Shown in pieces: positions 36,835 through 36,859 of a stretch of DNA of 40,305 nt; the stretch's first letter is position 1; every line of letters begins with the position of its first letter. This DNA comes from a virus (Duplodnaviria; Heunggongvirae; Uroviricota; Caudoviricetes). Position numbers and translations under genes: made by a program. The stretch lies in IMG/VR virus record IMGVR_UViG_2721755720_000005; one strand, 5' to 3'. Under the pieces are notes generated by a model, which worked only from the letters and a program-made list of their open reading frames with translations, did no database searches and had not been told where the DNA came from.

Positions 36835-36859
36835 AATCGATCGTTTTTGTCGATCGATT
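36835..36859. promoter_or_regulatory. GATC-containing inverted repeat upstream of com/mom (candidate Dam-methylation-sensitive control site)
   Basis: AATCGATCG-N7-CGATCGATT with GATC at 36839 and 36852; further GATC at 36682 and 36717. Confidence 0.45.

Follow-up and report, generated by a model that had tools for sequence, protein, structure and literature searches.

Is the GATC-bearing palindrome ahead of com and mom in a Mu-like prophage a binding site for the host regulator OxyR, and is it used as in bacteriophage Mu? Mom hypermodifies adenines and is toxic, and its control is therefore a classic case of multilayered regulation. In Mu, "region I" of mom is described as carrying three GATC sites and as being bound by OxyR when these are unmethylated (Bolker and Kahmann, 1989; Hattman and Sun, 1997; both as cited in PMC4461284 and PMC2909390). 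From sequence comparison, we consider it probable that the palindrome studied here is the com-proximal half of a Dam-methylation-sensitive site for OxyR, a LysR-type regulator of the host.

The stretch of DNA analyzed (the window, 40,305 nucleotides) is, by its gene content, a Mu-like prophage. Besides com and mom at the right end, it encodes a Ner-type HTH protein, MuA transposase, GemA, a single Mor/C-family protein, and lysozyme, and it is about 91-92% identical to "Mu-like phage" inserts in two Stx phage records. Its left end is truncated by the window boundary. The window matches E. coli hsdR with 100% identity from 37923 onward. This flank identifies E. coli, or a very close relative, as the host and places the prophage inside hsdR, the R-subunit gene of a type I restriction system. 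An 805-aa ORF from 37888 (to 40305) begins in phage-end DNA (junction region 37860-37930), and hsdR would thus be disrupted or fused. Dam and OxyR are present in E. coli; dam and oxyR are both outside the window.

The com gene (36903-37103, + strand) encodes a zinc-ribbon translational activator (Pfam Zn_ribbon_Com, 2e-12; 47% identical to Mu Com), and its Shine-Dalgarno sequence AGGAGG is at 36887-36892 (+ strand). The mom gene (37057-37794, + strand) encodes a DNA adenine-modification enzyme (Pfam Mom, 8.5e-78; 78% identical to Mu Mom); it starts with GTG and overlaps the 3' end of com. This GUG lies under a hairpin CCCCAC...GUGGGG (37030-37062), and the Mu equivalent is UCCCAC...GUGGGA (2390-2412 in L006 coordinates). 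The Mu-type overlapping com-mom operon, the zinc-ribbon Com, and the hairpin over the mom start codon are all present in the window, and the hairpin is consistent with a retained translational block relieved by Com. Com is an RNA-binding translational activator in the literature (PMC6483171), while its RefSeq label is "DNA-binding transcriptional regulator."

The palindrome AATCGATCG-N7-CGATCGATT (36835-36859) is a perfect inverted repeat with a left arm AATCGATCG at 36835-36843, a 7-nt spacer TTTTTGT at 36844-36850, and a right arm CGATCGATT at 36851-36859. Its Dam sites, GATC 36839-36842 and GATC 36852-36855, are 13 bp apart from start to start. The first-pass annotation had described an inverted repeat with two Dam sites about 50 bp upstream of com, and this description was accurate: the 9-bp arms are perfect, and the com ATG (36903) is 44 bp downstream of the palindrome's end and 56 bp downstream of its center. 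GATC occurs at 36682, 36717, 36839, and 36852 in the com upstream region, which makes four in a 320-bp intergenic region against about 0.9 expected from the window (117 in 40305 bp, a density of about 2.9 per kb). Stretches of approximately 2.3 kb free of GATC are found on both sides (34317-36681 and 36856-39138), and the latter spans all of com and mom.

Within the window, statistics on the palindrome are weak. In 40 kb of sequence with the same composition, perfect inverted repeats of the palindrome's size are expected about 2.2 times and were observed five times, and 44% of simulated sequences contained at least one GATC-N9-GATC. Neither feature is significant by this measure, and the case therefore rests on comparison with related sequences. 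Such inverted repeats and one GATC-N9-GATC are unremarkable in a single 40-kb window and would fit a chance feature with no function, but conservation, position, and recurrence in divergent com-mom loci as well as in Mu and agn43 speak against chance and leave it next to no probability.

The palindrome is real and strongly conserved. Sp18-like prophages are present in 232 of 5426 complete E. coli genomes, and in Sp18-like relatives the palindrome is invariant except for one base in one locus. It is part of a conserved regulatory block TATTTGTTGTATCAATTAAACAAATCAAATCGATCGTTTTTGTCGATCGATT (36808-36859) that covers both of the OxyR-type half-sites discussed below and is nearly invariant in an alignment of 13 variants; only four positions vary among these 13 distinct Sp18-like upstream sequences, which represent 32 loci. 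In five E. coli relatives the block TATTTGTTGTATCAATTAAAyAAATCrAATCGATCGTTTTTGTCGATCGATT is invariant, and it is kept even in strain JE86, whose sequence farther upstream is unrelated. The 17 bp right after the palindrome (36860-36876) are the most variable part of the 13-variant alignment, and this hypervariability may reflect either a leader under relaxed constraint or the tuning of a weak promoter. One locus (L038, about 1000-1040) has an extra 6-bp CAACAA in the CAACAACAAAG tract before the Shine-Dalgarno sequence.

Beyond Sp18-like prophages, the comparison covered 54 distinct regions upstream of com, drawn from bacterial genomes and IMG/VR. In 35 of these 54 com-mom loci, GATC-N9-GATC occurs no more than 170 nt ahead of com; GATC-N14/15-GATC is the sole pair type in another 15, so a GATC pair with a spacing of 13 or 18-19 bp is found in 50 of the 54. 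No GATC pair was found in four loci (Endobugula, Parathalassolituus, a deltaproteobacterial MAG, and one unclassified IMG/VR contig); the three that could be identified are non-enterobacterial. The remaining 136 kb of the same loci contain no GATC-N9-GATC and one GATC-N14/15-GATC. The exact frame ATCGATCG-N7-CGATCGAT occurs in 59 IMG/VR contigs and adjoins com in 30 of them.

Comparison with characterized operators points to the kind of site this is. Upstream of com, Mu (AF083977) reads CGACGATCGAATCAATTAAATCGATCGGTAATACAGATCGATTATGCCCCAATAACC, and its GATC sites II and III, AATCGATC-N9-GATCGATT, form the same dyad as the palindrome. A site spacing different from that of Mu had been proposed for the window, but the pair is 13 bp apart from start to start in both. 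Mu and the window phage also share the downstream genes com and mom, a C protein (the orthologue is encoded elsewhere in the window phage), and a half-site spacing of 31 bp. In E. coli agn43 (flu), GATC II and III are likewise 13 bp apart, the operator core TATCGATCGTTTATATCGATCGATA is identical to the palindrome at 21 of 25 positions, and a distal half-site lies 32 bp upstream.

OxyR half-sites were scored against the published consensus ATAGnTnnnAnCTAT, which has 10 specified positions (PMC2909390), and Mu from AF083977 and agn43 from E. coli K-12 NC_000913 were used as sequence controls. Functional OxyR half-sites match 7-10 of the 10 positions and are 32 bp apart (PMC4856963). The inner 15-mer of the palindrome, ATCGTTTTTGTCGAT (36840-36854), is a proximal OxyR-type half-site with a 7/10 match, and it is flanked by GATC 36839 and 36852, so that the pairing of GATCs in a half-site that marks Dam-sensitive OxyR operators is present. 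A distal OxyR-like half-site, ATTTGTTGTATCAAT (36809-36823; 7/10), is 31 bp upstream. It carries no GATC, and TATC at 36817 stands where Mu and agn43 have the GATC I region. Dam-sensitive OxyR operators have at least two half-sites about 32 bp (reduced OxyR) or 22 bp (oxidized OxyR) apart, and the 31 bp found here agrees with the former.

Together, the half-sites at 36809 and 36840 score 14/20, the highest of any 31-bp-spaced pair in the 40-kb window. Half-sites with at least 7/10 are rare (67 of about 40,300 window positions), and five of them fall within 36787-36867. When 36780-36880 was shuffled with dinucleotides preserved, the observed full-site score was reached in 21 of 2000 shuffles and the observed number of half-sites with at least 7/10 in one of 2000. 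The controls scored 7+7 (14/20) for Mu at 2148 and 2179 (L006 coordinates; 31 bp apart) and 8+8 (16/20) for agn43 at 306 and 338 (L109 coordinates; 32 bp apart). The OxyR consensus is degenerate, and each putative half-site in the window matches only 7 of its 10 positions.

Mu and the window share more than the two half-sites. Matches of at least 6/10 occur at offsets 0, +9, +18, +27, and +31 in both Mu (from 2148) and the window (from 36809), and an ungapped alignment of Mu 2148-2198 with 36809-36859 retains every OxyR-consensus offset. We preferred this alignment to one anchored on the common ATCAATTAAA, which needs a 9-bp indel. The region is AT-rich with a periodicity of roughly 9 bp, which gives several alternative half-site registers and makes the exact homology of the left half ambiguous.

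An inverted repeat can also act as a nucleic-acid hairpin, here either as a stem-loop of the com leader RNA or as a minus-strand intrinsic terminator against antisense or read-in transcription. A minus-strand scan did flag a terminator-like 9-bp stem followed by TGATTTGTTT, and RNA folding was predicted at -13 kcal/mol for the + strand and -10.8 kcal/mol for the - strand (z about -2.7). However, the T tract is poor, the palindrome did not qualify as a terminator in an intrinsic-terminator test, and no minus-strand gene ends to its right, hence there is nothing to terminate. An Rfam scan of 36300-37300 gave nothing above noise. Evolution of the arms gives the clearest argument. Among 19 diverse GATC-N9-GATC modules, the two GATCs are the sole invariant positions, and the flanks follow ATyGATC...GATCrAT independently on each side. 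Arm positions outside GATC are paired in 80.1% of cells against 82.0% in shuffles, without covariation, and the pair adjoining GATC repeatedly shows C/A mismatches. The absence of covariation suggests a symmetric protein-binding dyad rather than an RNA hairpin, and the spacer between the GATCs, fixed at 9 bp and variable in sequence, is typical of a protein site. A hairpin function is thus very improbable.

Two candidate promoters were considered for com-mom. A sigma-70 matrix scan fixed no single promoter: the best match is unconserved, and the conserved candidate has a poor -10. The conserved candidate, promoter (i), is ATGACT-N17-TATCAA (36794-36822, + strand; predicted start near 36829). 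Its hexamers, ATGAC[T/A] and TATCAA, are invariant in 13 of 13 variants, including the JE86 type, despite diverging flanks; it would be weak because the -10 lacks the usual final T. Under promoter (i) the GATC pair would lie at about +11 and +24, an agn43-like geometry. The -10 of promoter (i) falls in the distal half-site, as the agn43 -10 does in its own distal half-site, and the agn43 operator overlaps the -10 and the early transcribed region, with the isrC/flu 5' end annotated at GATC I.

Promoter (ii), TTGTCG-N19-TATCAT (36847-36877, + strand; predicted start near 36884), has the best + strand sigma-70 score in the window. Its -10 is poorly conserved, being CATCAA or TATCAA in most relatives and CATCAA in the commonest. 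Promoter (ii) would place the GATC pair at about -46 and -33, like GATC3/4 of P22 gtr. Each methylation-sensitive OxyR half-site of P22 gtr holds one pair of GATCs with a 13-bp spacing, at -110/-97 or -46/-33; repression comes from the half-site that overlaps the promoter, and OxyR no longer binds after methylation (PMC2909390). All promoter geometries considered place the GATC-bearing half-site within about -46 to +24. OxyR bound there would block polymerase or early elongation in each of them, and the proposed mechanism is thus independent of the promoter chosen.

With promoter (ii), the GATC pair would cover the -35 and spacer, and this raises the alternative that Dam methylation acts directly on RNA polymerase through these sites, without a repressor. 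Direct methylation effects on promoters do occur, for example at IS10 pIN. Related phages (L054-L056 and L007) have a clear -10 (TATACT, TATAGT, or TAGATT) 11-13 nt past the proximal GATC, and the pair likewise lies over their -35 and spacer. A direct effect leaves the conserved distal half-site and the fixed 13-bp spacing unexplained, as well as the symmetric ATyGATC...GATCrAT flanks and the near-identity to the agn43 OxyR operator, and we regard it as unlikely.

Mom expression in Mu also depends on the late activator C. The window has a C orthologue of the Mor/C family (9395-9817, + strand; Pfam Mor, 6.7e-31) directly upstream of the lysozyme gene, with 40% identity to Mu C and 28% to Mu Mor. 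The ORF scan yielded no second gene of the Mor/C family, whereas Mu carries one for Mor and one for C. TTyTGAwnTyCCGCAAAwCC recurs on the + strand in three intergenic regions that precede late genes, at 9812-9831 (lysozyme), 17999-18018 (ORF 18051), and 33090-33109 (ORF 33170), with scores of 18-19 out of 19; the next-best site in the window scores 15. A TAnnCT -10 (TACGCT, TATGCT, or TATTCT) follows after 22-23 nt, and GCAA stands at the position of ATAA in Mu late promoters. These motifs with their -10 elements are probably sites of promoters that depend on the C orthologue.

No comparable site was found ahead of com. The best match to the C-type motif in 36600-36900 is 11/19, which is at background level, although the motif was derived from three sites and a degenerate site is possible. 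Between its operator and com, Mu has the C site TTATGCCCCAATAA. This site is without counterpart in the window, where the gap between palindrome and Shine-Dalgarno sequence is 27 bp and therefore leaves no room for such a site and a -35 region. We also considered CTGCAAAATCC at 36740 as a C-type site and rejected it: its left half-site fails, it is unconserved in relatives, and its score is at background. Neither the triple GATC nor the C site centered near -43.5 that characterize a Mu-type Pmom was found in the window. The proposal of the first-pass annotation that the logic of Mu is preserved is consequently retained for its Dam/OxyR part, which the Mu dyad, the half-site offsets, and the match to agn43 support, and not for its C-activator part, given the 11/19 score.

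The dyad could instead be bound by a protein other than OxyR, such as the phage C-type activator, another phage regulator, or SeqA on a hemimethylated pair. A conserved symmetric dyad without covariation fits any dimeric DNA-binding protein, and two GATCs 13 bp apart are in principle a possible SeqA target. The phage has a C orthologue, the C site of Mu directly abuts GATC III, and with a transcription start near 36877-36885 a site centered at -43.5 would overlap the palindrome's left arm. Against this stand the score of at most 11/19 for the motif of the three late promoters in 36600-36900 and the limitation of CGATCG in the window to 777, 8767, 36681, 36838, and 36851, so that the palindrome is not common to the other late promoters. 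The same dyad is also found at agn43, a chromosomal gene without a phage regulator, and ahead of com in phages that must have different C proteins. A non-OxyR protein is improbable, and the palindrome is most likely, by its sequence, an ordinary relative of the known methylation-sensitive OxyR repressor sites of Mu mom and E. coli agn43.

Within this family, the arrangement in the window has its own layout. Mu has three GATCs (I-18 bp-II-13 bp-III) and the window two, site I being absent. Relative to com, GATCs are at -109, -91, and -78 in Mu-like loci and at -64 and -51 in the class of the window, so the proximal GATC is 51 bp from the com ATG in the window and 78 bp in Mu. Because this position differs by 27 bp, experimental results from Mu are not simply transferable. 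The Mu operator lies upstream of its promoter, at about -54 to -99 as estimated from the annotated promoter; to judge from the coordinates, the putative operator of the window, unlike that of Mu, has to lie across the promoter or the beginning of the transcribed region. The agn43 operator, which corresponds in geometry to promoter (i), differs from the window in having three GATCs, better consensus matches (8+8), and an adhesin gene that is chromosomal or in a cryptic prophage. P22 gtr, whose pair at -46/-33 would correspond to promoter (ii), and Salmonella opvAB have three or four half-sites and two alternative OxyR positions that lead to phase variation; the window has one clear arrangement of two half-sites, with GATCs in only one of them. 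By these comparisons the window arrangement is compacted and closer to agn43 or gtr than to Mu.

Upstream of the palindrome, the remaining two GATCs of the intergenic region appear to have a different context. They were correctly located at 36682 and 36717 by the first-pass annotation, which had counted them in a mom cluster; this assignment was not supported. They are 120-170 bp from the palindrome (the nearest is 122 bp away), outside the OxyR-like site, and seem to belong to a separate leftward promoter. This sigma-70-like promoter (36682-36720, - strand) consists of TTGACT (36710-36705), a 16-nt spacer, and TACGAT (36688-36683). GATC 36682-36685 overlaps the end of its -10, and GATC 36717-36720 is just (7 bp) upstream of its -35. 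In an alignment of E. coli relatives, TTGACT-16-TAGGAT(C) is kept, with both hexamers and the GATC of the -10; these relatives also have a third GATC at the leftward promoter, 11 bp from the second. The promoter faces a zinc-ribbon/transmembrane ORF (35977-36504) with a weak Pfam Zn_Ribbon_1 match, and methylation might tune the leftward promoter and this divergent ORF.

For the palindrome itself, the reading as an OxyR site leads to the following model. When the proximal GATCs are unmethylated, an OxyR tetramer would occupy the two half-sites at 36809-36823 and 36840-36854, 31 bp apart; by analogy with Mu, OxyR might also bind hemimethylated DNA. The OxyR-type site would cover either the core promoter or the first 30 nt of the com-mom transcription unit, so that bound OxyR would obstruct RNA polymerase and the toxic mom operon would stay silent. 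Once Dam has fully methylated both GATCs, OxyR would be expelled and com-mom could be transcribed. Since these sites would normally be methylated in dam+ E. coli, repression may be only transient or confined to a subpopulation. The sequences show the anatomy of the site, its conservation, and its close match to the validated sites of Mu and agn43; from these comparisons we infer OxyR binding, its sensitivity to Dam, where transcription starts, and that the effect is repression.

A more speculative extension is that an operator overlapping the promoter, with no apparent C site, might be a heritable epigenetic ON/OFF switch in lysogens. This suggestion comes from the overlap of the putative operator with the com-mom promoter, as in agn43 and gtr, and from the lack of an apparent C site. 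Heritable ON/OFF switching has been demonstrated for agn43; for the window, we hold such a switch to be rather unlikely. If it exists, either OxyR would shield both GATCs from Dam or Dam would methylate them and exclude OxyR. A subpopulation of E. coli would then express Mom and hypermodify its own DNA, becoming restriction-resistant or altered in gene expression, and Mom would be a phase-variable DNA-hypermodification enzyme, in contrast to Mu, where its function is strictly late and lytic. Occupancy of the operator in lysogens would predict that both GATCs are stably unmethylated in EHEC methylomes, which would be an easy marker and possibly a route by which mom expression becomes heterogeneous. 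A search of the literature for unmethylated GATCs reported in methylomes of Mu-like prophages gave no relevant result.

As the homologue of a long-known system, the operator leaves current understanding of such sites unchanged. What the comparison adds is that the Dam/OxyR layer appears to be widely conserved as a module of com-mom loci among Mu-like phages of enterobacteria (50 of 54 loci), and that the common Sp18-like prophages of E. coli and EHEC would have a compacted version of the operator, placed on the promoter.

Related arrangements of GATC sites were found outside the class of the window. Loci in which com starts with MDSVRC (L069, L070, L090, and similar loci) have a perfect palindrome with 11-bp arms, GACGATCGATA-N6-TATCGATCGTC, approximately 80-100 nt upstream of com; instead of a 13-bp pair, it has two GATCs with a spacing of 18 bp, as in sites I-II of Mu. 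The arrangement GATC-18 bp-GATC-13 bp-GATC, with the core ATCGATCGGTTTCAACGATCGAT, is also present in seven viral contigs without com nearby: L116 (5080-5135; IMGVR_UViG_2585427591_000001), L129, L135, L154, L156, L158, and L164. By their sequence, these triple-GATC arrangements may be further operators of the OxyR/Dam type in another phage context.
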